Source of the DNA: Herpetosiphon aurantiacus DSM 785
GTDB lineage: Bacteria; Chloroflexota; Chloroflexia; Chloroflexales; Herpetosiphonaceae
Reading direction: 5' to 3'
Length of the DNA: 64,000 nucleotides
Assembly (NCBI GenBank): GCA_000018565.1
Contig: CP000875.1
Location: 441,199 to 505,198, forward strand
The notes beneath the pieces are model-generated. The model saw only the letters and a program-made list of their open reading frames with translations. It was not told the DNA's origin and did no database searches. Shown here piece after piece: positions 47,410-59,105 of the stretch. The position numbers were made by a program, and so were the translations under genes. How positions within the stretch are numbered: the stretch's first letter is position 1; the number at the start of each line of letters is the position of its first letter.

Positions 47410-47640
47410 CGTGCAATGAAGATTCGCTGAGAAATAGGGGGGTACTTTTGGCCTAAGTTGCCCGTTGATTATGTCTATGGTACACTCAGACCCTACAAGA
47501 TTTAACCATCAGTTAAAGCAGCATTGACATGCGGTTTATCTTCTTTATGCAGCATGACATTTCAGAACTGAAGGTTCCCGCGTTGGTTAGCCGTCACAGT
47601 TGTTCTGGGCGGCGTTTCTACATGAATCGTGGAGGATTCT

Positions 47641-50600
47641 GTGCAATTTAAGGGTTTACGACTCCTAACAGCGTTAACGATGCTGTTCACGTTGATTGGT
47701 ACTTCGTTGTCCGCAACATACACCACTCCAACCAGTGCTGTATCAACCTCCCTTGTCATTAGTCAATTCCAAACCGCTGGCGGTACTGCCGATGATGAAT
47801 TTATCGAAATTCACAATATCAGTGCCAATCCAGTCGATTTGAATGGGCATCGCGTCGTTTATCGTGCTGCTGCTGGGGTAACTGATGTTTCAATTGCCAG
47901 TTGGACAAGCTCGGTTGTAATTCCTGCTGGTGGTTTCTATCTCTTAGGCCGTGCGAACTCATATGATGGTACGGTTACCGCTGATACAACCTTTGGTAGC
48001 GGTATTTCTGGTACGGGTGGGGGCTTCGCTATCCGTAACGGTGATTTGAATACTGGCACAATCATCGATTCAGTTGGCTTTGGTAGTGCGACGAATGCCT
48101 TTGTTGAAGGCACGGTTGTAGCTGCTCCGAGCGCCAACAATAGTGCTCAACGCAATAATTCAAGTTGTACTGATACCGACAATAATGCTGCCGATTTCAG
48201 TTTGTTGACTCCTTCAGCTCCTCGCAATAGCAGCAGTCCAGTTGCAACCTGTGGTGGTTTGCCAACCGATAATCCACCAACTGTTGCCAGCACTGTGCCA
48301 GCCAATAATGCCAACAATGTGGCCTTGAATGCGAACGTCACCCTTACGTTCAGCGAGCCAGTCACCACGACGGGCACTTGGTACACCATTAGCTGTACCA
48401 GTGGCGCTCGCACCGCCAGTGTTACTGGTGGCCCAACCAGCTATGTGCTTGATCCCAGCAGCGATTTTGCTGCCAGCGATGCTTGTACGGTAACGGTTGT
48501 TGCCAGCCAAGTAACCGACCGCGATGGTAGCGTTGATGCTATGGCCCAAGACTATAGCTTCAACTTCAATGTTTCGAGCGGTGTCGCCTGTTCAGGTGGC
48601 ACGGTTACCCCAATCGGCCAAGTGCAAGGCACTGGCGAAACCAGCCCAGCAAACGGTACGGTTGTTACCGTTCAAGGGACGGTGGTAGCCGATTTTGAAG
48701 GTGCTCAGCCTGCTTTGCGTGGCTTCTACCTGCAAGATGCTGGCGATAGCAACGCTGCAACTTCCGATGGTATTTTTGTATTCAACGGCGGCGCTGATCA
48801 AGTTGCGCTTGGTCAAGTGGTGCGCGTAACTGGTACGGCTGGCGAAAACCAAGGCCAAACCCAATTGAGCGGAAGCTTGACGGTTGAGCTTTGTGGCACA
48901 ACCAACACGGTTACCCCAACCCAAGTTACCTTGCCATTTGCCTCAACCACCGATGCCGAGCGCTTTGAAGGTATGTTGGTTCAATTCAACCAAAAGCTGG
49001 TTGTTTCAGAGCACTACTTGTTGGCTCGCTTCGGCCAAGTAACCTTATCGCTCAACGAACGCTTGGCACAACCAACCAACGTGGTTTCACCAGGCGCTCC
49101 AGCCTTGGCATTGCAAGCACAAAATAACTTGCACAAAATCATCCTCGATGATCCATTCAACAACCAAAATGCCGACCCAATTCTGTTTGGTCGTGGTGGC
49201 ACTGGTTTGAGCGCCGCCAATACCCTTCGCGCTAGCGATAGCATCACTGGGTTGCAAGGTGTGATGACCTACACGTGGGGTGGTAATAGCGCTAGCCCCA
49301 ACAGCTACCGCGTGCGCGTAACCCAATCGCCAAACTTCGTAGCCGAAAACCAACGCCCAACCTCGCTTGAGCTTGATGGCTCATTACGGGTTGCGGGAAT
49401 CAACGTGTTGAACTATTTCAACACCTTTGGCAATGGCAACTGTACTGGCGGGGTTGGTGGTGCTGCTACCGATTGTCGTGGTGCTGAAAATACCACCGAA
49501 TTCCAACGCCAAAAAGATAAAACCATTGCTGCGATCATCATGACTCAAGCTGATGTGATTGGCTTGATGGAAATTGAAAATGATGGCTTCGGCAGCAATA
49601 GCGCAATCCAAGATTTGGTTAATGGCTTGAACGCAGCCACTGCACCTGGTACCTATGCCTTGGTGGATGTCGATACACGCACAGGCCAAACCAATCCATT
49701 AGGTACTGATGCAATTAAGGTTGCCTTACTCTACAAGCCTGGCAAGGTTAGCTTGGCTGGTACAACCGCCGTACTCAATACTGGGGCATTCGGCGATTTC
49801 ACCACCAGCAGCGGCACAACTGGCCGTAATCGCCCAGCTTTGACTCAATCGTTTACCGAAACCAGCAGCGGCGAAACCTTCACCGTGGTGGTCAATCACC
49901 TTAAGTCGAAGGGTAGTGCTTGTACCGATAACGTCAGCCCAGTGCCAAGCGACCCCGATTTGGGCGATGGTCAAGGCAACTGTAACCTGACCCGCAAAAC
50001 TGCTGCCCAAGAATTAGTGGCTTGGTTGAATACCGACCCAACCAATGTTGATGATAGCGATTATCTGATCATTGGCGACTTGAACTCATACGCCATGGAA
50101 GATCCAATCACCGCTATTCGCAACGCTGGCTATGTCAATATTCCCAAAACCTTGCTTGGCGACGAAGCCTACTCATACATTTTCGATGGCCAAACTGGTT
50201 CGCTTGACCATGCCTTGGCTAGCACTTCGTTGTTCAGCCAAGTTGCTGATGTTCAAGAATTGCACATCAATGCCGATGAACCAATCGCCTTGGATTACAA
50301 CACCAACTTCAAGAGCGCTGGGCAAATCGTCAGCTTGTACAATAACGATGCCTATCGTGCTTCCGACCACGATCCAATTGTGGTTGGTTTAGCCTTAGGC
50401 GCGGCTCCAACCGCCAACTTCAGCACTTCAACCAAAACCGTTAGCAGCACCAGCGTCGAACAAGGCGAGGTCTTCACTTACACCTTGACGATTCGCAACA
50501 CGGGTGCAGCTGAAGGCAGCTTTAGCTTGAGCGACCTGATCAACAGCAATCTCGAAATTGTTGGCGTGACTGGCGGCTTGACGGTCAATGACCAAACCGC

Positions 50601-50799
50601 CAGCGTCAATAGCAGCCTCGCACCAAGCAGTAACAAAACCTATACCATCGCTGTGCGCAGCGTGGGCAATTTCGTGGGTAGCGTTGGCAACACCGCTGTC
50701 CTCAACAGCAATATTAACTTGACCGCCGATAGCGTGACAGTCAATGCAACGACAACCCCAAGCTTCACTGTGTACATGCCATTAGTCACCAAAAACTAA
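47641..50799 (+). CDS. ExeM/NucH-family extracellular nuclease (LTD domain, Ig-like SbsA domain, endonuclease/exonuclease/phosphatase domain, C-terminal DUF11 repeat)
   Basis: A signal peptide; the LTD (LVISQFQTAGGTADDEFIEIHN), an Ig-like block (PTVASTVPANNANNVALNANVTLTFSEPV) and the EEP domain (GINVLNYFNTFG...IGLMEIENDG...SDHDPIVVGL). The start is at GTG 47641, 5 nt after GGAGGA. Confidence 0.8.
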   Translation: MQFKGLRLLTALTMLFTLIGTSLSATYTTPTSAVSTSLVISQFQTAGGTADDEFIEIHNISANPVDLNGHRVVYRAAAGVTDVSIASWTSSVVIPAGGFYLLGRANSYDGTVTADTTFGSGISGTGGGFAIRNGDLNTGTIIDSVGFGSATNAFVEGTVVAAPSANNSAQRNNSSCTDTDNNAADFSLLTPSAPRNSSSPVATCGGLPTDNPPTVASTVPANNANNVALNANVTLTFSEPVTTTGTWYTISCTSGARTASVTGGPTSYVLDPSSDFAASDACTVTVVASQVTDRDGSVDAMAQDYSFNFNVSSGVACSGGTVTPIGQVQGTGETSPANGTVVTVQGTVVADFEGAQPALRGFYLQDAGDSNAATSDGIFVFNGGADQVALGQVVRVTGTAGENQGQTQLSGSLTVELCGTTNTVTPTQVTLPFASTTDAERFEGMLVQFNQKLVVSEHYLLARFGQVTLSLNERLAQPTNVVSPGAPALALQAQNNLHKIILDDPFNNQNADPILFGRGGTGLSAANTLRASDSITGLQGVMTYTWGGNSASPNSYRVRVTQSPNFVAENQRPTSLELDGSLRVAGINVLNYFNTFGNGNCTGGVGGAATDCRGAENTTEFQRQKDKTIAAIIMTQADVIGLMEIENDGFGSNSAIQDLVNGLNAATAPGTYALVDVDTRTGQTNPLGTDAIKVALLYKPGKVSLAGTTAVLNTGAFGDFTTSSGTTGRNRPALTQSFTETSSGETFTVVVNHLKSKGSACTDNVSPVPSDPDLGDGQGNCNLTRKTAAQELVAWLNTDPTNVDDSDYLIIGDLNSYAMEDPITAIRNAGYVNIPKTLLGDEAYSYIFDGQTGSLDHALASTSLFSQVADVQELHINADEPIALDYNTNFKSAGQIVSLYNNDAYRASDHDPIVVGLALGAAPTANFSTSTKTVSSTSVEQGEVFTYTLTIRNTGAAEGSFSLSDLINSNLEIVGVTGGLTVNDQTASVNSSLAPSSNKTYTIAVRSVGNFVGSVGNTAVLNSNINLTADSVTVNATTTPSFTVYMPLVTKN

Positions 50800-50815
50800 T
50801 TTGGCTGAACTCGAA

Positions 50816-50852
50816 GCGCCCAACACCAGCAATTGGTGTTGGGCGCTTTTTT
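50816..50852 (+). terminator. Rho-independent terminator (GCGCCCAACACC-loop-GGTGTTGGGCGC followed by TTTTTTGGTT)
   Basis: A perfect 12-bp GC-rich stem 17 bp after the nuclease stop, followed by a T6 tract. Confidence 0.85.
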
Positions 50853-50937
50853 GGTTAATCAGCCTAAAGCCGCTGGTCGGGCTTGATTGCATTTTTATAA
50901 TGAAGCAGATTGAAGTACATTGGAGCAGCAGCCAGCC

Positions 50938-51402
50938 ATGCAGTATGCAGACCGTAGCGAGTCAATCAGCGAATATCTCAAGCGCTGCCCATTCCACAAT
51001 ACCATCACAATAACGAATCGATTAACGTCCGATGGCGATCGGATTATCACAATCCTCAACAATCACACGATCGCGATCGAAATTTATTTGGCAAAATCAA
51101 ATTATTGCCTAATTAATGCAGGTTTAGGATTCAATGTTGATGATATCTACTGGCCCAATTTCCCTGCAATTTCGGTGCTTGAGTATTTAGTTAATGGCCA
51201 TCTGGTTGAAAAACAGCGCATGCTTGGTTCAACCTGTGTTGGCGTGAGTAGTTATGTGGCAATCAACACTGACATTATCTACAGTAATCGAACATTCTGC
51301 CTGCTTGGCGAGCTGCTGCATGTGTTTACAAAGGCAACGCGCTTCGTTCAATATCCAAAACTTGTGGATTCAAAATCAGTTATAGATCAACCGTTACCCT
51401 AA
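50938..51402 (+). CDS. Hypothetical protein in an A+T-richer segment
   Basis: An ORF of about 155 aa with visibly lower GC than its neighbours. I recognise no motif. Confidence 0.3.
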   Translation: MQYADRSESISEYLKRCPFHNTITITNRLTSDGDRIITILNNHTIAIEIYLAKSNYCLINAGLGFNVDDIYWPNFPAISVLEYLVNGHLVEKQRMLGSTCVGVSSYVAINTDIIYSNRTFCLLGELLHVFTKATRFVQYPKLVDSKSVIDQPLP

Positions 51403-51488
51403 CGCTCAATAGGCCAAATTGGGGCTTGCATGTGCTCATTGCAGGCTGTAAGCTAGCAGCATCATAGCGAATCAATTTGGAGAGAGAG

Positions 51489-52580
51489 ATGCTGGCTTTT
51501 TGGCATACCTATCAACGGGTCAAACATGGCAGTTGGAGCTTGGTTTTGGGCTTGGCTTTGGTAGCTTGCTCAATTCCAGTCAATTACTCCTCGGATAATC
51601 CACCAACTAGCCCACCAGCCGAACTTCAAATCGCAGCAGGATTCACAATTACCCCCATTATTACTGGCCTTGATCAGCCAACTGGACTAGCCTTTGATCC
51701 CCAAGGGCGTTTGTATATTGCCCAACGCTCAGGCACTGTGCTGATCAGCGACGGAACCAACCCACCCCGCGAGTACGCAACTGATTTCAATAAGCCCTTG
51801 AGTTTGCATTGGTATGAGCAGGCGTTGTATGTGGTTGAGCAAGGCCAAATTCAGCGCTTGAGCGACGGCAATAGCGATGGGATCGTCGATCAGCAAACGG
51901 TTTTATTGAGCGATCTGCCTGATCAAATTGAGGCGGCCACGCTGGTTTCCGATGCGCAGGGTTGGCTCTATCTCGGTGTAGGAACACGTGCTGATCATAC
52001 GGCAACCGCCGGAATTCAAGAGGGTTATATTCGGCGTTTTCGCGCCGATGGCAGCGAATCGAGCGTGTATGCAACTGGTTTACGCATGCCGTTTGGCCTA
52101 GCCTTCGACCCACAGCAACAGCTTTATGCCACCGATAACGGGCGCGAAGGCCTTGGCGATGATCTTCCTCCCGATGAGGTAAATCGAATCACGGCTGGAG
52201 CCGATTATGGTTGGCCGCGCTGTTGGGGCCAGCGCCAGCCCGATGCTGATGGCGGCGGTGATGCGGCCAACTGTTCGACCACCAACGAGCCAGTTGCGTT
52301 GTTGCCTGCCCATAGCGGTGTAACCGGAATTGTCTTCTATCAGGGCACAGCGTTTCCCGCCAGATATCACGGCGATGCCTTCATTGGCTTATCCGGTTCA
52401 TGGTATAGCCAAGAATTACGGGGCCATAGCATCGTCCGCATGGATGCCGAAACACAGCAGATTGAGTCATTCGCCAGTGGTTTTGGCCGACCTGTTGGTT
52501 TAGCGATTAGCCCGCAAGGCCAATTGTTGGTCGCTGATTATGACCGTGGCACCATCGTAATGATTGCCGCCCCACCTTAA
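51489..52580 (+). CDS. PQQ-dependent sugar dehydrogenase (SGDH/YliI-like beta-propeller) lipoprotein
   Basis: A lipobox LVAC and the motif ATDNGREGLGDDLPPDEVNRITAGADYGWPRC, which is DNG...DE.N.I..G.DYGWP. A GGAGAGAGAG RBS precedes the ATG. Confidence 0.8.
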   Translation: MLAFWHTYQRVKHGSWSLVLGLALVACSIPVNYSSDNPPTSPPAELQIAAGFTITPIITGLDQPTGLAFDPQGRLYIAQRSGTVLISDGTNPPREYATDFNKPLSLHWYEQALYVVEQGQIQRLSDGNSDGIVDQQTVLLSDLPDQIEAATLVSDAQGWLYLGVGTRADHTATAGIQEGYIRRFRADGSESSVYATGLRMPFGLAFDPQQQLYATDNGREGLGDDLPPDEVNRITAGADYGWPRCWGQRQPDADGGGDAANCSTTNEPVALLPAHSGVTGIVFYQGTAFPARYHGDAFIGLSGSWYSQELRGHSIVRMDAETQQIESFASGFGRPVGLAISPQGQLLVADYDRGTIVMIAAPP

Positions 52581-52604: not shown

Positions 52605-53087
52605 ATGGCACATATTATTAGCATTGCCTGTGGTGTAACTCCATGGGCCTTCAGAATTTCAACAACAACTGCATGGGTATGGGGTAGCCTGCTGGTGGTA
52701 GCGACAATTTGGGCCAAAGCAATGGGCTTAATGTTCTACGATTGGTTCGCTGATCGCTCGGCATGGCTTGATGGCATTCGTTTAACTATCGGCAATCTGC
52801 TTGTTATTTGGTTGAGCTATGTCGTTTTCCGCTCACCCGACGCGATTTATACCAGTTTCATCGGGATTATTCTCTTGGATTATCTCACCATGAGCTGGAT
52901 TATCAAACAACGCGCGGCCAAAGCGATTAATCGTGATCCAATTGGCCAGCTCCAAGTTATTGATCATACGCCAAAGATGTATGAATCGCCAACAAAAATT
53001 GCTGTGATGATTAACTTGTTTGCAATTGCGGCGGCAATTCTTAGTAGTTTACTCTTGTTCTTCGTCAGCGTATTTGTATTGAGCTAA
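52605..53087 (+). CDS. Small polytopic membrane protein, paralog 1 of 4 (N-terminus MAHIISIACG)
   Basis: 160 aa with about 4 predicted TM segments. It shares N-terminal M..I.IACG and overall topology with the next three ORFs. Confidence 0.55.
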   Translation: MAHIISIACGVTPWAFRISTTTAWVWGSLLVVATIWAKAMGLMFYDWFADRSAWLDGIRLTIGNLLVIWLSYVVFRSPDAIYTSFIGIILLDYLTMSWIIKQRAAKAINRDPIGQLQVIDHTPKMYESPTKIAVMINLFAIAAAILSSLLLFFVSVFVLS

Positions 53088-53106
53088 ATGAGCGCAAGGA
53101 GTAGCT

Positions 53107-53586
53107 ATGCAACAGCTCGTTCTGGCCTGTGGCTACAATCCATTCGGCTATGTGATTTTCTTCTTCATCATGGTCATTCCATTTAGCCTGACTTTAGGCA
53201 TCAAATGGTTTTTTCTGGCGCAAACGCTACGCGCATCCCACCGTTCGTTATTTCTCCATAGCTTAGGATTAACCTTTATCGTAGGATTGGTGATTGGCTT
53301 CGTTTTCATCTCTGCTTATATTCTACCAACTTCTTTATTTGTAATAGAAATCGGGGGTTTCTATTCGTATCAATTTTTTATTTGGGCCATCGTTTGCATT
53401 GTCGATACGTTCTTGATTGAACGCTGGTTGCTCAAACCGAAAGCCCAAGCAATCAGCCTAACCGACGATCAGCAATTACAGGTTGAGGCAGCAGCGATTA
53501 AATATCAGCCATCCTGGGTCGCTGCCCTCCTTTCGAATACATTAATTGCGATCGTCGTCGCTTTGTTTTTTCAAATGATCGATTAA
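53107..53586 (+). CDS. Small polytopic membrane protein, paralog 2 of 4 (MQQLVLACG...)
   Basis: 159 aa with an AGGAG RBS. Its central and C-terminal region is nearly identical to paralog 3 (FVFISAYILPT.LFVIEIG.FYSYQ.FIWAIVCIVDTFLIERWLLKPKAQAISL). Confidence 0.65.
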   Translation: MQQLVLACGYNPFGYVIFFFIMVIPFSLTLGIKWFFLAQTLRASHRSLFLHSLGLTFIVGLVIGFVFISAYILPTSLFVIEIGGFYSYQFFIWAIVCIVDTFLIERWLLKPKAQAISLTDDQQLQVEAAAIKYQPSWVAALLSNTLIAIVVALFFQMID

Positions 53587-53603
53587 CTAGCAGTGAGGCC
53601 GCC

Positions 53604-54092
53604 ATGCAGCAGATTTTGATTGCTTGTGGCTCCAATCAATTAGGTCAAATTTTTGCCTTAGTTGGGGTATTAGTTCTATTTTTTATAAATTTAGGCATCA
53701 AATGGTTTTTTCTGGCAAAAACTCGGCGTTCGGCACGCCGTTCATTGTTTATCGATAGCTTTGGGTTAATGTTTATGACGGGAGTGGTGACGGTCTTTGT
53801 TTTCATTTCTGCTTATATTCTGCCAACCTTTTTATTTGTGATCGAAATTGGATTTTTCTATTCCTATCAAATTTTCATTTGGGCAATCGTTTGCATTGTC
53901 GATACGTTCTTGATTGAACGCTGGTTGCTCAAACCGAAAGCCCAAGCAATCAGCCTAAATGACGATCAGCAATTACAAGTCGAAGCTGTGCCTATGAGCT
54001 ATCAACCTGCGTGGGCCGTAGCGCTCCAATCGAATACATTAATTGTGATCTTAGTTGCTTTGTTTTTTCAAATGATCGATTCGATGAACTAG
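53604..54092 (+). CDS. Small polytopic membrane protein, paralog 3 of 4 (MQQILIACG...)
   Basis: 162 aa. It shares a 100% identical DNA tract of more than 70 nt with paralog 2 (atcgtttgcattgtcgatacgttcttgattgaacgctggttgctcaaaccgaaagcccaagcaatcagccta). Confidence 0.65.
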   Translation: MQQILIACGSNQLGQIFALVGVLVLFFINLGIKWFFLAKTRRSARRSLFIDSFGLMFMTGVVTVFVFISAYILPTFLFVIEIGFFYSYQIFIWAIVCIVDTFLIERWLLKPKAQAISLNDDQQLQVEAVPMSYQPAWAVALQSNTLIVILVALFFQMIDSMN

Positions 54093-54105
54093 TAATGGGG
54101 CGGCT

Positions 54106-54597
54106 ATGCAGCAGATCGTTATTGCCTGTGGAATTAATCCAATCGGCGCACTGATTGAGTTAGTATTTTGGATTATCGGGATTATCATGGCCATTTGGTT
54201 TATGGTGGTGTTTAAAGCTTGGGCCTTTCCCCGCAGTCAATGGTTCAATCGACGAGCACCAATGCTTAAAAGTTTTATCATGTTGATGACTGGGGCAACG
54301 GTCGTAATCCTGGTTATGACAGGCATATATTTCCTTGCGCCTGCGATCTTTAACTATCGCTGGGGATTTGTCCGCCAATATCATGTGATTCTCCTACTGG
54401 CGATTTGTGTTCACGATGCGTTGGCGATGAACTATTGGCTCAATCAAAGCTATGCCCAAACCCTAAGCCTTGATCCAAACCAACAAATGCAGGTCGATCC
54501 CGCTTGCAGCCATTGGTATCAACCGTGGGTGATTGCCTTTAGCACCAACCTATTACTTTTTCTCTGTTTGATGCCGGTGTTTCGCTTAACCAATTGA
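54106..54597 (+). CDS. Small polytopic membrane protein, paralog 4 of 4 (MQQIVIACG...), divergent
   Basis: 163 aa. It has the same N-terminal motif and topology, and the same C-terminal Q-rich linker (LSLDPNQQMQVD resembling ISLTDDQQLQVE). Confidence 0.55.
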   Translation: MQQIVIACGINPIGALIELVFWIIGIIMAIWFMVVFKAWAFPRSQWFNRRAPMLKSFIMLMTGATVVILVMTGIYFLAPAIFNYRWGFVRQYHVILLLAICVHDALAMNYWLNQSYAQTLSLDPNQQMQVDPACSHWYQPWVIAFSTNLLLFLCLMPVFRLTN

Positions 54598-54757
54598 GTA
54601 TCCAGTGTATTGCTTATGAATTAACCAACCATGCCTCGCCCAAGTAAACTGATATCTTGCTGATATTGCTGAGAGTTGCTTGAAAAAGGGAACACAATTG
54701 GCCTGCTATCCGTTATGATAGGAACAGCCGAATCGATTTTAGTGTGTGGAGCATGGT

Positions 54758-57067
54758 ATGCGCTGGATACGCTGGTGTTGGCTGCTGTTGCTGATAGCCC
54801 TACCGATCAGTGCAGCATCGAGCCAAGAGCAATCAAATAATGGGCTAGTTTGGCAGGTTGAGCCAGTTTTTGGCACAGTTTATCGCGCTGGTGAGTGGAT
54901 GGCTTTGCGGGTTAAGGTCAGCAATACTGGCGTTGATCGCATGGTCGAAATTCATATTGGCAACTACAATGTTGAGCTTGATGTGCCAGGTGGCTCGCAA
55001 AAAGAAACTTTGGTCTATGGCCAATTTGATCAGGCCTTTCGGGTGCCAATGGCCATGTATTTAAATGGTGAGAAGCGCGAAACCGCTACGCTGCAACTAC
55101 GTTCCACCGATCGCCCAATGGTCGCAACCTTGCTGGAACAGCCACTACCCCAATTAACCAAAGTGGTATTAGTTGCCACTGATAGCCAACAATTGCCCAA
55201 CGTTCAGATTGGCCTTGATATGCTGAGTGGGATTGTGCTCAATCAGCGTTCATGGGGCGAACTCACTCCTGAGCAACAGCAAGCGATCAAGCAATGGGTC
55301 AATAACGGCGGGGTGTTGGTCGCTGAGCCAAATCTGCTCGAAGATTTACCAGCCGAACTCCAACCAGCTCAAGCTACTGGCCAGCAAACGATTGCCACCA
55401 CAACCCTAAGTCAAGTGTTTGGTCAACCATTTAATGTGCCAAACTTGGATGTTGCCCTACTTCAGCCCAATCAACAAGCAGCGACCAGCCTCAAACAAGA
55501 GCAAACGCCGCTGTTGGTTAAGCGCTCGGTTGGCCGTGGCTTCGTGATTGCCAGCGCCTTTAATTTTGATCAAGCTGAAATTACGGCGTGGCGGGGCTAT
55601 GAAAACCTACTGGCGTCGCTCTTCCCCCAGCAACAAGATCTAGGCTGGATGGGTGCTGGTAGCAGTGAAAGTATGTTACGTGATAGTGCCGCGCCTGCCT
55701 TGCTGAACAATTTGCCAGCCCTCGATTTGCCGCCACTGCAAACGCTGTTAATTCTTTTGGGAATTTATATTGTTTTGGCCGGGCCAGTCACTTATCTTGT
55801 GTTACGGCGGCTTGATCGCATGGCCTTAGCTTGGCTGACGATTCCGACATTAACCTTAATTTTTGCCGTGCTAGCCTATGGAATTGGCTCGAAACAACGG
55901 GGCACTGATATTTTGGTTCACGATGTGGCCTTGATTTACCCTGACGAGCAAGCGAATGCCACGGTCTTAGGCTATGCGGGTATTTTCTCGCCAGTACGCG
56001 AAGACTATCAAGTTACAATCAACCATGGCGCATACCCTCGCCCATTGTTGGTTAACCCCAATCTGGGCACTAATGGTGGCATTAACGCCACCAGAGCGCT
56101 CTACAGTCATCAGCCAGGCGATGTGCGTAATCTCACGATCAATCAATGGTCGATGGAAATGTTTGCCTACGAACGTGATATCAGCGATGCGCCGCATGTG
56201 CAAATCGAAATCAGCCTGCAAGGTAAAAAAATTATTGGCAAGGTCAAAAATACCAGCACCTATACGTTGAGTGATGCGGCGTTTATTATGTTGGGCAATG
56301 CTCAAAAGTTTGGCACAATCGAGCCAGGCGCTGAAAAATCGATCGAATTGCAAATCAACAATAATCCCTCGATGTCTGGGGCAAGTTATTTGTTGTTTCA
56401 AAAAGAGCTTGATGAAGGCTATCAGACTGAATTTGGCCCGCCACGTGAGCTTTTGGCCAAAACCCAGGCGCTCGATATTGCCCTTCCTACCACCTATGGC
56501 AGTATCGATCGGAATGCAGTATTTGTAGCATTTGTCGATTTCAATCAAGCAGTAATCGACTTGCCGGAAAAACGCTTTGCTGCGACCCAACGTAGTCTGC
56601 TCATTCAATATCCGCAACTGCGCTATAGCCAAAATGCCGTTGAACTGACCAATAATTGGTTTAGCTATATCTTAGAAGACGACCCAAATATGGGCATGGG
56701 TTCAACCTGCACAACCAGTGCTCGTGGTGCTGGCACCAACATCTCACAAAAAACTGGCATTATTCAACTTAGCCTACCCACAACATTTAGCTCAATCGAA
56801 GCCCAGTCGTTACGGCTCTTGCCAACGATCGATGGTGGCATGGTTGCGCCCAACAAATTAACCTACGAACTATACAACTGGGCTACTAGTCAATGGGATG
56901 TCGTTGAATTCAAAAATGGAGCGATTGATCTGACCACCAGCCCCAGCACCTATTTGCAACAAGGCAACTTGCGCACCCGCTACACCCTCGATCCAACGGT
57001 TGATACCACGGCAGGGCTATGGGGTTGCTTCTCGGTTGGGCCAGTGCTTTCGGGAGTTGTCAAATGA
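54758..57067 (+). CDS. Large exported membrane protein, possible ABC-transporter auxiliary component (GldG/DUF4350-like?)
   Basis: A signal peptide, an extracytoplasmic domain of about 330 aa with a WVNNGGVLVAEPN amidotransferase-like motif, a central TM hairpin and a C-terminal domain of about 370 aa. It lies immediately upstream of, and overlaps, the ABC ATPase gene. Confidence 0.45.
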   Translation: MRWIRWCWLLLLIALPISAASSQEQSNNGLVWQVEPVFGTVYRAGEWMALRVKVSNTGVDRMVEIHIGNYNVELDVPGGSQKETLVYGQFDQAFRVPMAMYLNGEKRETATLQLRSTDRPMVATLLEQPLPQLTKVVLVATDSQQLPNVQIGLDMLSGIVLNQRSWGELTPEQQQAIKQWVNNGGVLVAEPNLLEDLPAELQPAQATGQQTIATTTLSQVFGQPFNVPNLDVALLQPNQQAATSLKQEQTPLLVKRSVGRGFVIASAFNFDQAEITAWRGYENLLASLFPQQQDLGWMGAGSSESMLRDSAAPALLNNLPALDLPPLQTLLILLGIYIVLAGPVTYLVLRRLDRMALAWLTIPTLTLIFAVLAYGIGSKQRGTDILVHDVALIYPDEQANATVLGYAGIFSPVREDYQVTINHGAYPRPLLVNPNLGTNGGINATRALYSHQPGDVRNLTINQWSMEMFAYERDISDAPHVQIEISLQGKKIIGKVKNTSTYTLSDAAFIMLGNAQKFGTIEPGAEKSIELQINNNPSMSGASYLLFQKELDEGYQTEFGPPRELLAKTQALDIALPTTYGSIDRNAVFVAFVDFNQAVIDLPEKRFAATQRSLLIQYPQLRYSQNAVELTNNWFSYILEDDPNMGMGSTCTTSARGAGTNISQKTGIIQLSLPTTFSSIEAQSLRLLPTIDGGMVAPNKLTYELYNWATSQWDVVEFKNGAIDLTTSPSTYLQQGNLRTRYTLDPTVDTTAGLWGCFSVGPVLSGVVK

Positions 57068-58017
57068 GCGAATTAGCGATCCAAACTGTTGATTTGTTGC
57101 GGCGCTATGGCAAATACACTGCTGTCAACAAGCTTAATTTGAAGATCACACTTGGTAGCATTTTTGGATTTCTTGGCCCAAATGGTGCTGGCAAAACCAC
57201 AACCCTGCGCATGCTAGCAGGCTTGTTGGAGCCAAGCAGCGGTCAGGTATTTTTGCATGGCCAACTAATTCAAAAAACCAGCACAGCTGCCGCAATCGTC
57301 GGCTATATGCCTGATTTCTTCGGGGTTTACGATGATCTGCGGGTCTGGGAATATCTCGATTTCTATGCCCGTTGCCATGGCATTGAGCCAGCCAAGCGCA
57401 AAAGCACGGTCGATGGCCTGCTCGATTTGGTTGATCTCAGCGAAAAACGCAATGCCTTTGTGCAACACCTAAGCCGTGGCATGCAACAGCGTTTATGTTT
57501 GGCCCATGCCTTGGTGCACGACCCCAAAATTTTATTGCTCGACGAGCCGGCCAGCGGCCTCGACCCCCAAGCGCGGGTTGAGTTGCGCGAATTGCTGCGC
57601 ACCCTGCGCGATATGGGCAAAACAATTATTCTTAGCTCGCATATCTTGAATGAGCTTGAAGATATTTGTACCGATTTTGGCATTATGGCCCGTGGTGAAT
57701 TGCTGGCTCAGGGTTCGCTTGAAACCTTACGCCAACGGAGCCGTCCGGCCCTGCAAATTAAAGTGCTCGATGATCTTGATCGCGCGATGCGCTTGATTGC
57801 TGCTCAATCGGGAGTTTTGCGGGTACTCGAACCAGCCGAAGCCACGCCCATGCTGATCGAGGTGGAATTTGATGGCGATGAGCAGCAAGCCTCACAATTA
57901 TTGCTCAATCTAGCGCGGGCCGAGCTACCAATTGCCGATTTTCATCGTGAGGACGATTCGCTAGAACGGCTGTTTTTGCAGCTTGTCAACAACCATGGTC
58001 TGGAGGAACGAGTATGA
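57064..58017 (+). CDS. ABC transporter ATP-binding protein
   Basis: Walker A GPNGAGKTT, signature LSRGMQQRL, Walker B ILLLDEPASGLD and an H-loop SSHIL. Confidence 0.9.
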   Translation: MSELAIQTVDLLRRYGKYTAVNKLNLKITLGSIFGFLGPNGAGKTTTLRMLAGLLEPSSGQVFLHGQLIQKTSTAAAIVGYMPDFFGVYDDLRVWEYLDFYARCHGIEPAKRKSTVDGLLDLVDLSEKRNAFVQHLSRGMQQRLCLAHALVHDPKILLLDEPASGLDPQARVELRELLRTLRDMGKTIILSSHILNELEDICTDFGIMARGELLAQGSLETLRQRSRPALQIKVLDDLDRAMRLIAAQSGVLRVLEPAEATPMLIEVEFDGDEQQASQLLLNLARAELPIADFHREDDSLERLFLQLVNNHGLEERV

Positions 58018-59105
58018 GCAATCGTGCAGTCAGCCGTCGTTGGAGCTTACAACCCAACCCAATCGTGGTCAAAGAGTTACGTTCGCGCATGCGCGGTGGC
58101 CGAGCGTTTATCTTGCTCACCGGCTTTTTGCTTGGCTTAGGTTTGGTTGGCTATGCTTTGTTTTTGCGAGCAACCAGCGGCCAAGCAGCGGGCATGCCGA
58201 TCTTTAGCGCCCAAATTGGCCAAACCTTGTTTGCAGGTTTAGCCTTTATGTTGCTGTTTTTGGTGATTTTAATTGCCCCAGCAGTAACAGTTGGCGCTAT
58301 CAGCAGCGAACGCGAACGGCTAACCTATGAAATGTTGATCGCCACGAATCTGCCATCACATCGCTTGCTGTGGGGCAAATTGATCTCAGCGCTTTCGTAT
58401 ATTGCGCTCTTGTTGCTGGCGGCGATTCCACTGGGCAGTATCGTCTTTTTATTTGGCGGGATTACGCTGCGTCATGTGCTGCAAGCAGCCGCAATTATTG
58501 TGTTAAGCGCGATCACCAGCGCCATGCTTGGCATTTGGGCTTCGGCCATGACTGGTAAAACCGGACGGGCAGCAGTAGTCAGTTATGTGATTATTGGCTT
58601 GGTGTTAGGTGGATTTTTGGCTGGAGCTGAAATCTGGACTAACCGCTCGACTGAACCTGTGCCCACTGGCCTCTTAGCCCCCAACCCGATCAGCGCCTTG
58701 GCTTCAAGCATTGGCACTTTGTCGGGGCCAAGCAATGGCGGGATGATTACCACAATGCGAGCGTTTGAAGCAGTGCCAATGGCGGCTGGCGGCGGTTGGT
58801 GGCCTGGAATGAATTCGTTTAGTGGGGGCTTGAATTTCCCAGGCTGGCAAACCTTTTCAATTGGAATTTACCCAGCCACCGATCAATTTGGCCCTGATGG
58901 CATGCCAATTATTGCCGAGCCACGTTCGGTTTGGCGCACGACCTTGATTATTTTGATTATGACATGCTTGGTGTTCTTCTGGATGGCGCTGCATGCGGTC
59001 AAACCACGTCGTCGCTGGTGGCCAACTTGGGGCGATTTGGCGATGCTGTCGGTCACCTCGTTGAGTTTGCTTGGCCTTGGCTATTGGATTGGCTGGTGGT
59101 TTTAG
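58014..59105 (+). CDS. ABC-2-type transporter permease (6 or more TM helices, NosY/GldF-like) with C-terminal extension
   Basis: A GGAGGA RBS, a start overlapping the ATPase stop and multiple TM helices. It has no substrate-binding or ATPase motifs. Confidence 0.7.
   Translation: MSNRAVSRRWSLQPNPIVVKELRSRMRGGRAFILLTGFLLGLGLVGYALFLRATSGQAAGMPIFSAQIGQTLFAGLAFMLLFLVILIAPAVTVGAISSERERLTYEMLIATNLPSHRLLWGKLISALSYIALLLLAAIPLGSIVFLFGGITLRHVLQAAAIIVLSAITSAMLGIWASAMTGKTGRAAVVSYVIIGLVLGGFLAGAEIWTNRSTEPVPTGLLAPNPISALASSIGTLSGPSNGGMITTMRAFEAVPMAAGGGWWPGMNSFSGGLNFPGWQTFSIGIYPATDQFGPDGMPIIAEPRSVWRTTLIILIMTCLVFFWMALHAVKPRRRWWPTWGDLAMLSVTSLSLLGLGYWIGWWF

Follow-up and report, generated by a model that had tools for sequence, protein, structure and literature searches.

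Anatomy of the locus

The window analysed here is a stretch of 64,000 nucleotides (nt) of Herpetosiphon aurantiacus DSM 785 (contig CP000875.1, positions 441,199 to 505,198), and its subject is an array of four tandem genes for small membrane proteins, c1 to c4, which stands directly behind the gene of a propeller lipoprotein of the GSDH type. All five genes lie on the + strand: the GSDH gene (Haur_0421, ABX03072) at 51477-52580, c1 (Haur_0422) at 52605-53087, c2 (Haur_0423) at 53107-53586, c3 (Haur_0424) at 53604-54092 and c4 (Haur_0425) at 54106-54597, with gaps of 24, 19, 17 and 13 nt from the GSDH gene to c4. The array proteins are 160, 159, 162 and 163 amino acids (aa) long, respectively, and every array gene opens with ATG and has a purine-rich stretch 5' of its start. 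The proteins exactly match ABX03073-ABX03076 of strain DSM 785, each of which is annotated 'hypothetical protein'; Haur_0422 is the name given for ABX03073, and the tags Haur_0423-0425 and Haur_0421 were assigned by gene order. Haur_0422 is 130 aa long in the original GenBank entry (ABX03073) and 160 aa in RefSeq; the 160-aa start at 52605 is backed by the conserved IACG motif and by the orthologs, and the c1 orthologs of other species may start at a TTG three codons further 5'.

The N-terminus reads MQQ[IL][VL][IL]ACG in c2-c4 and MAHIISIACG in c1, with the shared pattern M-x-x-[IL]-x-[IL]-A-C-G, and a Q-rich motif precedes the last hydrophobic segment in all four copies. Different levels of divergence were observed within the array, as c2 and c3 share 70% protein identity and 78% DNA identity, c4 shares 28-32% amino-acid identity with c2 and c3, and c1, the most divergent paralog, only 26-34% with the other copies. 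Since the profile of the c1 orthologs matched that of the c2-c4 group in a profile-profile comparison (95.8% probability, E = 8e-9), c1 is nevertheless a true paralog. A preliminary description of this DNA, made from the letters alone, had reported four tandem, paralogous + strand open reading frames (ORFs) of 159-163 aa with a shared N-terminal motif, about four transmembrane (TM) helices per copy and a Q-rich segment before the last helix, and all of this is borne out, the last two points by the structural models given below.

A strong terminator-like hairpin (50813-50849, + strand; a 17-bp stem followed by a T run) was found after the nuclease gene that lies upstream, and no convincing terminator was found inside the stretch from the GSDH gene to c4. 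GSDH-c1-c2-c3-c4 is probably one transcription unit with its 5' boundary at this hairpin.

Duplication and gene conversion of c2 and c3

The longest exact match between c2 and c3 is 73 nt, in agreement with the earlier count of more than 70 nt, and joins 53389-53461 in c2 (the donor copy) with 53886-53958 in c3 (the converted copy) at 100% identity on the + strand. The tract encodes IVCIVDTFLIERWLLKPKAQAISL, that is, the end of TM3 and the start of cytoplasmic loop 3, and it comprises 24 consecutive identical codons (permutation p = 8e-4, with the amino-acid identity pattern held fixed). The sole repeat in the region is the c2/c3 unit itself (83% identity over 300 nt, the units being spaced 497 nt apart). 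Synonymous (dS) and nonsynonymous (dN) divergence and their ratio (omega) differed along the pair: dS 0.79, dN 0.55 and omega about 0.70 for codons 1-30; dS 0.79, dN 0.21 and omega 0.27 for codons 31-60; dS 0.68, dN 0.12 and omega 0.17 for codons 61-90; dS 0.22, dN 0.012 and omega about 0.05 for codons 91-125; and dS 0.88, dN 0.17 and omega about 0.19 for codons 126-159. Outside the tract, the background dS of 0.7-0.9 is about that observed between species (0.5-1.0), so the c2/c3 duplication is old.

The direction of the exchange was read from the c3 orthologs of sister strains (P0042, P0043, P0045 and P0048), which are 94-100% identical to the window c3 in three other segments and only 68-76% identical at codons 95-119. 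There the sister sequences read ..VDTFLI[ND]RWSIKPNVQ.. (..INRWSIKPNVQ.. at the place of the converted copy), whereas the window c3 has the ..VDTFLIERWLLKPKAQ.. of c2. Because the sister orthologs differ strongly inside the tract only, the 73-nt tract is a real, directional c2-to-c3 gene conversion in the DSM 785 lineage. An assembly artefact, the doubt that the preliminary description had attached to the tract, does not account for it, because the finished DSM 785 genome is built on Sanger reads at 11x, its error rate being below 1e-5 (PMC3368417); all four exact proteins were also found again in independent assemblies. An RNA element or another nucleotide-level constraint behind the tract was rejected, as an Rfam search of both strands gave no match and the tract codons show ordinary dS between species (0.46 against a metagenome-assembled genome (MAG) locus, L001, and about 2 against the Herpetosiphon geysericola locus, L003). 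The preliminary description had left the choice between ongoing gene conversion and a recent duplication with diversification of the N-proximal helices; the sister strains directly show a gene conversion, the interspecies level of dS speaks against a recent date, and the N-proximal diversification is upheld by the omega of codons 1-30, the other segments having omega of 0.01-0.27. The middle gene was thus duplicated long ago in the H. aurantiacus subclade, c3 being the extra paralog of this subclade, with divergence falling mainly on TM1 and loop 1, and the 73 nt from the end of TM3 to the start of loop 3 were copied later from c2 into c3 in the DSM 785 lineage.

An exact c2::c3 chimera (P0039) was observed as the middle gene of three-gene arrays in three metagenome assemblies from short reads, with DNA about 99% identical to that of DSM 785 (L015 4001-4489, L016 1750-2238 and L017 261-749). 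It has c2 residues 1 to about 117 followed by the c3 C-terminus, with the junction within the 73-nt tract, and most likely represents an assembly collapse of the 497-bp repeat unit, a real unequal-crossover deletion being possible; the identical tract probably makes short-read assemblers collapse the gene pair into a chimera. Another stretch of about 27 nt is also identical in c2 and c3 (53193-53219 and 53690-53716), where TM1 ends with LGIKWFFLA. In Herpetosiphon gulosus, the single c2/3 gene looks c2-like before this stretch and c3-like after it, and the stretch might be another recombination junction.

Distribution and classification of the family

An exhaustive hmmsearch of 1.84e9 representatives gave 9 matches at E <= 1e-3, and a word-indexed search of 5.8e9 clusters gave 21; a broader profile (word-indexed, 11 matches) added no new family members, and a scan of metagenome contigs added one locus of a type already known. 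All organism-named matches belong to Herpetosiphon or Herpetosiphonaceae, and c1-c4 constitute an orphan protein family restricted to Herpetosiphonaceae. Nothing reproducible was obtained for all copies and 25 members in Pfam, NCBIfam and PADLOC scans, the family profile gave 0 matches at E <= 10 among PDB sequences, fold comparison gave no match, neither c1-c4 nor four neighbouring proteins matched PADLOC at E <= 0.1, and no mention of Haur_0421-0425 was found in the published literature. The earlier remark that the motif is not assignable to a known family therefore holds for Pfam, NCBIfam, PADLOC, PDB and fold searches alike. Two H. gulosus homologs carry the UniRef label DUF4149, and DUF4149/TMEM205-like proteins resemble the family in size and in having four TM helices; the label was not reproduced by Pfam hmmscan, in which none of the 25 members matched DUF4149/TMEM205 (PF13664) at E <= 10.

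Orthology and selection within Herpetosiphon

Herpetosiphon loci from the MAG (L001), Herpetosiphon llansteffanensis (L002), H. geysericola (L003) and Herpetosiphon giganteus (L004) were compared with the window. The order beta-helix protein, LTD/Big_5/Exo_endo_phos nuclease, GSDH, array, 773-aa membrane protein, ABC ATPase and ABC-2 permease is common to all five. The arrays of L001-L004 contain three genes each (c1, one c2/3-type gene and c4), H. gulosus, judged from the order of its accessions, likewise has three array genes, and four are present in a MAG close to DSM 785. In a neighbour-joining tree, the c1, c2/3 and c4 genes formed orthologous clades with bootstrap values of 46.5%, 77.5% and 78%, respectively, and the non-Herpetosiphon members fell into a separate clade (97.5%) with an independent duplication of their own inside it (94.5%). 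The Herpetosiphon array is thus made of three stable 1:1 orthologous lineages and is not a fast-turnover array.

Between species, the array genes show omega of 0.15-0.30 with dN of 0.11-0.37, and the flanking genes omega of 0.04-0.17 with dN of 0.02-0.13. Most array dN values lie at 0.2-0.37, against 0.06-0.13 for the flanking genes, the ABC ATPase being slower (0.02-0.04), so that the array proteins evolve roughly 2-4 times faster than most flanking genes. The omega of 0.15-0.30 indicates that the array genes are under purifying selection.

Protein architecture and predicted topology

Independent AlphaFold2 models of c4 (23 aligned sequences; predicted local distance difference test score 77, predicted template modelling score 0.63) and of c1 (25 aligned sequences; 75 and 0.64, respectively) are alike, with four long helices and the Q-rich segment as a beta-hairpin between helices 3 and 4. 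Mean Lys+Arg counts over 25 family members are 3.5 in loop 1 and 2.5 in loop 3 (together 6.0), against 0.16 at the N-terminus, 0.9 in loop 2 and 0.24 at the C-terminus (together 1.3). By the positive-inside rule, these counts place the termini outside and the KAxGL...R motif and the hairpin in the cytoplasm, and both termini of the four-transmembrane (4-TM) proteins are accordingly predicted to be extracellular.

C9, G10, K38, D92 (in TM3) and V118 (c1 numbering) are invariant across the family, and R51, Q115 and N137 (in TM4) are nearly so. In the predicted topology, the invariant Cys-Gly would be placed on the outer face directly before TM1, and the KAxGL...R motif and the conserved beta-hairpin QAIxLDxxGQLxV would lie on the cytoplasmic side. 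A reading of the N-terminal I-A-C-G as a lipobox was rejected. A lipoprotein signal has a positively charged n-region and an h-region of at least 7 residues ahead of the lipobox Cys, whereas only 7-8 residues with almost no positive charge precede the Cys here, a segment that is too short, and the c1-c4 ORFs cannot be extended upstream; distant members, moreover, have Met or Leu directly before the Cys, and neither is suited to a lipobox.

The propeller lipoprotein beside the array

The preliminary description missed the GSDH-type lipoprotein gene, the one neighbour that is conserved across lineages. Its product, Haur_0421, is a GSDH/NHL-type six-bladed beta-propeller (Pfam GSDH, PF07995, E 1.4e-21; DUF7133; NHL) with a lipoprotein signal, ..GLALVAC|S, that can be read directly in the sequence; the RefSeq start is probably at 51489, giving 363 aa. 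ABX03072 is annotated 'PQQ-dependent sugar dehydrogenase' (PQQ, pyrroloquinoline quinone), and the PDB sequence matches are 2ISM, 3DAS, 1C9U and 2G8S. As a PDB-based alignment of the active site was swamped by designed 'Pizza' propellers, an alignment of homologs was used instead. In the GSDH clade linked to the 4-TM family, the canonical GGH(x)(T/S)R is replaced by Q-IEAA or D-VEAA, SxCNxC by TR(A/S)DHT, GLRN by GLRM and GSWNRS by GSWY(S/T). The catalytic base of sGDH is His144, with Arg228/Asn229 flanking the ketones of PQQ (PMC6881810), and a nine-residue PQQ signature includes the His, Arg-Asn and Trp-Asn (bioRxiv 10.64898/2026.07.10.737718); R203 of the window propeller sits at the offset expected for Arg228. 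Judged from these motifs, three or more residues of the signature, among them the catalytic His and two Asn, would be missing from the propeller, which makes a canonical PQQ dehydrogenase unlikely. Compared with the soluble PQQ sugar dehydrogenases (sGDH, Asd/YliI and AA12), Haur_0421 shares the six-bladed GSDH fold and keeps the dyad Arg and the WGRP-type Arg motif (here FGRP), but it is without the catalytic His, has RN changed to RM and WN to WY, has lost the CxxC pair and is lipid-anchored via its lipobox.

The GSDH gene is followed by c1 in all five Herpetosiphon genomes. Beyond the genus, a Herpetosiphonaceae MAG of 68% GC carries a single 4-TM gene (P0024) 32 nt 3' of GSDH, followed by an unrelated phosphatase, and on a JGI contig two 4-TM genes (P0026 and P0027) flank one GSDH gene in the order 4TM-GSDH-4TM. 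The outer flanks differ in all three arrangements, and the GSDH/4-TM pair is the sole block conserved. GSDH is adjacent to family members in every lineage with context available, at a spacing of 24-52 nt; between these lineages the GSDH proteins are 58-63% identical to that of the window, and the 4-TM proteins only about 24%. No 4-TM gene adjoins the GSDH homologs that come next in similarity (43-46% identical), which are from Roseiflexaceae and other Chloroflexota. The possibility that the array belongs to a single-copy housekeeping family, which the preliminary description had considered damaging to its interpretation, applies in part, as the gene is single-copy in the one Herpetosiphonaceae MAG; the family is not a housekeeping one.

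No GSDH::4TM fusion was found among the long GSDH homologs, the extra length being a Pro/Thr linker. In a GSDH homolog of Malonomonas rubra (P0186), the lipobox and linker are replaced by about 75 additional, unrelated residues at the N-terminus that include roughly three hydrophobic helices, which shows that propellers of the GSDH family are membrane-tethered in different ways.

Surrounding genes

Upstream of the hairpin, a 1056-aa secreted protein (47629-50799, + strand) with LTD, Big_5, endonuclease/exonuclease/phosphatase and DUF11 domains is encoded; it is probably an extracellular nuclease, which is of note because the host is a predator. The interval from the nuclease terminator to the GSDH gene contains an ORF of 160 aa (50920-51402, + strand) that starts with TTG and has no Pfam match. 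By tblastn, this ORF was found in H. geysericola only (76% identity), being absent from L001, L002 and L004, and a 160-aa gene is called at the matching position in L015; the ORF seems to be either an accessory gene of variable occurrence or a questionable call.

Downstream of c4 follow a 773-aa protein (54746-57067) with a signal peptide, central TM segments and a weak DUF4350-like match (E 0.002), an ABC ATPase (57019-58017), whose start is overlapped by 49 nt by the 773-aa gene, and an ABC-2 permease (58014-59105), all on the + strand. This module is 85-93% identical across Herpetosiphon species, and it may consist of a GldG-like auxiliary protein and the transporter that belongs to it. An extra soluble ORF of 243-245 aa lies between c4 and the 773-aa gene at L002 11528-12259 and L003 11526-12263; it has no Pfam match (L003 tested) and is absent from DSM 785 and L001, and the corresponding gap in L004 is of like size, about 900 bp. 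A second case of a GSDH gene beside an ABC-2 transporter is L011 4001-7947 (GCA_013538855.1), where the gene of a GSDH homolog with 43% identity stands directly before those of an ABC ATPase and two ABC2_membrane_6 permeases.

Discussion

The reading favoured here, tentatively, is that the 4-TM family may supply lineage-specific membrane partner subunits of a lipid-anchored, catalytically degenerate propeller. The 4-TM proteins would form the integral-membrane partner of one clade of lipid-anchored GSDH-type propellers, as a homo-oligomer where there is one 4-TM gene and as a hetero-oligomer of the c1, c2/3 and c4 lineages in Herpetosiphon, and an oligomeric assembly of this kind is suggested by the copy numbers of 1, 2, 3 or 4 that arose through repeated, independent duplication. 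The propeller and its 4-TM partner would work as a binding, relay or transport module, which the loss of the catalytic His and two Asn makes more likely than a quinone-reducing dehydrogenase. Several observations weigh against this partnership. The pairing is seen in just three lineages, probably all of one bacterial family, and residual synteny is possible. The exposure of the 4-TM proteins on the side of the lipoprotein is predicted to be tiny (about 11 N-terminal residues, a loop of 10-13 residues and a few C-terminal residues), and the best-conserved soluble motifs of the family are cytoplasmic. The PQQ-signature residues were mapped by motif alignment and HMMER offset, not by structure. 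Lastly, a frameshift splits the c4 ortholog of H. llansteffanensis (L002 11006-11497) into ORFs of 92 aa and 67 aa, and that of another strain is truncated to 105 aa (L013 5512-5829; also in assembly L014), which points to pseudogenisation in some lineages or to sequencing errors; as c4 appears dispensable in these lineages, not every paralog would be essential.

Much of the same evidence would suit 4-TM proteins with an unrelated role of their own, for instance as envelope- or filament-specific structural proteins, whose adjacency to GSDH would be inherited synteny without a functional link: all loci are within one bacterial family, the family is an orphan, c4 can be lost and the predicted extracytoplasmic exposure is minimal. 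The gene order outside the pair, however, is not conserved between the three lineages, the rearranged JGI contig (4TM-GSDH-4TM) still keeps the pairing, and the spacing is tight (24-52 nt), and this explanation is regarded as unlikely though credible. The 4-TM proteins might instead be accessories of the downstream module of 773-aa protein, ABC ATPase and ABC-2 permease, for example additional subunits of an exporter that may be related to gliding or to the envelope, for which there seems a slim chance. The module shares the strand of the array, in an order that all five Herpetosiphon genomes retain, no convincing terminator was found between c4 and the 773-aa gene, and a GSDH homolog lies directly 5' of an ABC-2 transporter in an unrelated Chloroflexota contig, but the ABC module is absent from both non-Herpetosiphon loci that carry the family, about 900 bp separate c4 from the 773-aa gene in three Herpetosiphon species, and the 4-TM proteins have no similarity to the ABC-2 permease, from which an origin of the family was accordingly rejected. 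Small membrane partner subunits of extracytoplasmic dehydrogenases, such as the DoxD/DoxX-type 4-TM proteins and the small subunits of membrane-bound PQQ dehydrogenases, are a further likeness, being about 130-170 aa long with roughly four TM helices and having an adjoining gene for an extracytoplasmic enzyme-like protein of the PQQ/GSDH fold. With the conserved neighbour annotated as a PQQ-dependent sugar dehydrogenase and matching Pfam GSDH, and with a conserved intramembrane Asp and Asn that could line a quinone site, c1-c4 might be electron-transfer or quinone-reducing subunits that anchor the dehydrogenase and pass its electrons to menaquinone. The chance of this is slimmer still: c1-c4 differ from those subunits in showing no sequence, profile or fold similarity to them (no DoxX/DoxD or cytochrome b Pfam signal at E <= 10), in a partner propeller devoid of the catalytic and PQQ residues (no catalytic His; RM for RN and WY for WN) and in conserved 4-TM motifs that are cytoplasmic; the family has no conserved His or Met for haem ligation, and its conserved polar residues are in the half of the membrane that faces the cytoplasm, at a distance from any extracytoplasmic cofactor.

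The preliminary description had offered immunity proteins against membrane-acting toxins or bacteriocins, each paralog answering a cognate toxin and diversified by an arms race, and the chance of this is the slimmest of all. Like the tandem immunity arrays of bacteriocins and polymorphic toxins, c1-c4 are small polytopic membrane paralogs in tandem with fast evolution (roughly 2-4 times that of most flanking genes at the amino-acid level) and gene conversion; the omega of about 0.7 in TM1 between c2 and c3, the ABC-2 transporter downstream and the predatory host are also what this explanation would lead one to expect. Unlike those arrays, c1-c4 have no linked toxin, as no toxin, bacteriocin or polymorphic-toxin gene was found in Pfam scans of about 20 neighbouring window ORFs or in the gene content of related loci, in accordance with the remark in the preliminary description that no toxin gene is obvious, and PADLOC gave no match. 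They form three stable 1:1 orthologous lineages with no presence/absence turnover, are under overall purifying selection, and have a propeller lipoprotein as sole conserved neighbour, and the 'diversified' N-terminal part of c3 is 94-98% identical between strains. With a linked toxin lacking, and with stable orthology and purifying selection contradicting it, the immunity reading is unsupported. The other option of the same description, paralogous receptor or anchor families, is closer to what the genomic context suggests.

The partnership with the propeller can be extended, at a level that is speculative and rather improbable as it stands, to an undescribed two-component envelope module of Herpetosiphonaceae, in which a propeller descended from a PQQ enzyme would serve as the ligand-binding head and a hetero-oligomeric 4-TM bundle as relay or conduit. 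In such a module, the intramembrane Asp/Asn and the cytoplasmic beta-hairpin would relay binding or conduct a substrate, and the paralog expansion (1, 2, 3 or 4 copies) would tune the subunit composition.

On a small scale, the locus offers a clean and well-dated case of tandem duplication followed by asymmetric divergence and a short, directional gene conversion. The family is confined to one bacterial family, so that a wider impact would depend on the discovery of a function. A real partnership would give a first context to an unclassified family with no Pfam, NCBIfam or structural relatives, and a propeller of the PQQ-dehydrogenase fold would have lost its catalytic residues and gained a dedicated membrane partner in a predatory, gliding lineage of Chloroflexota.

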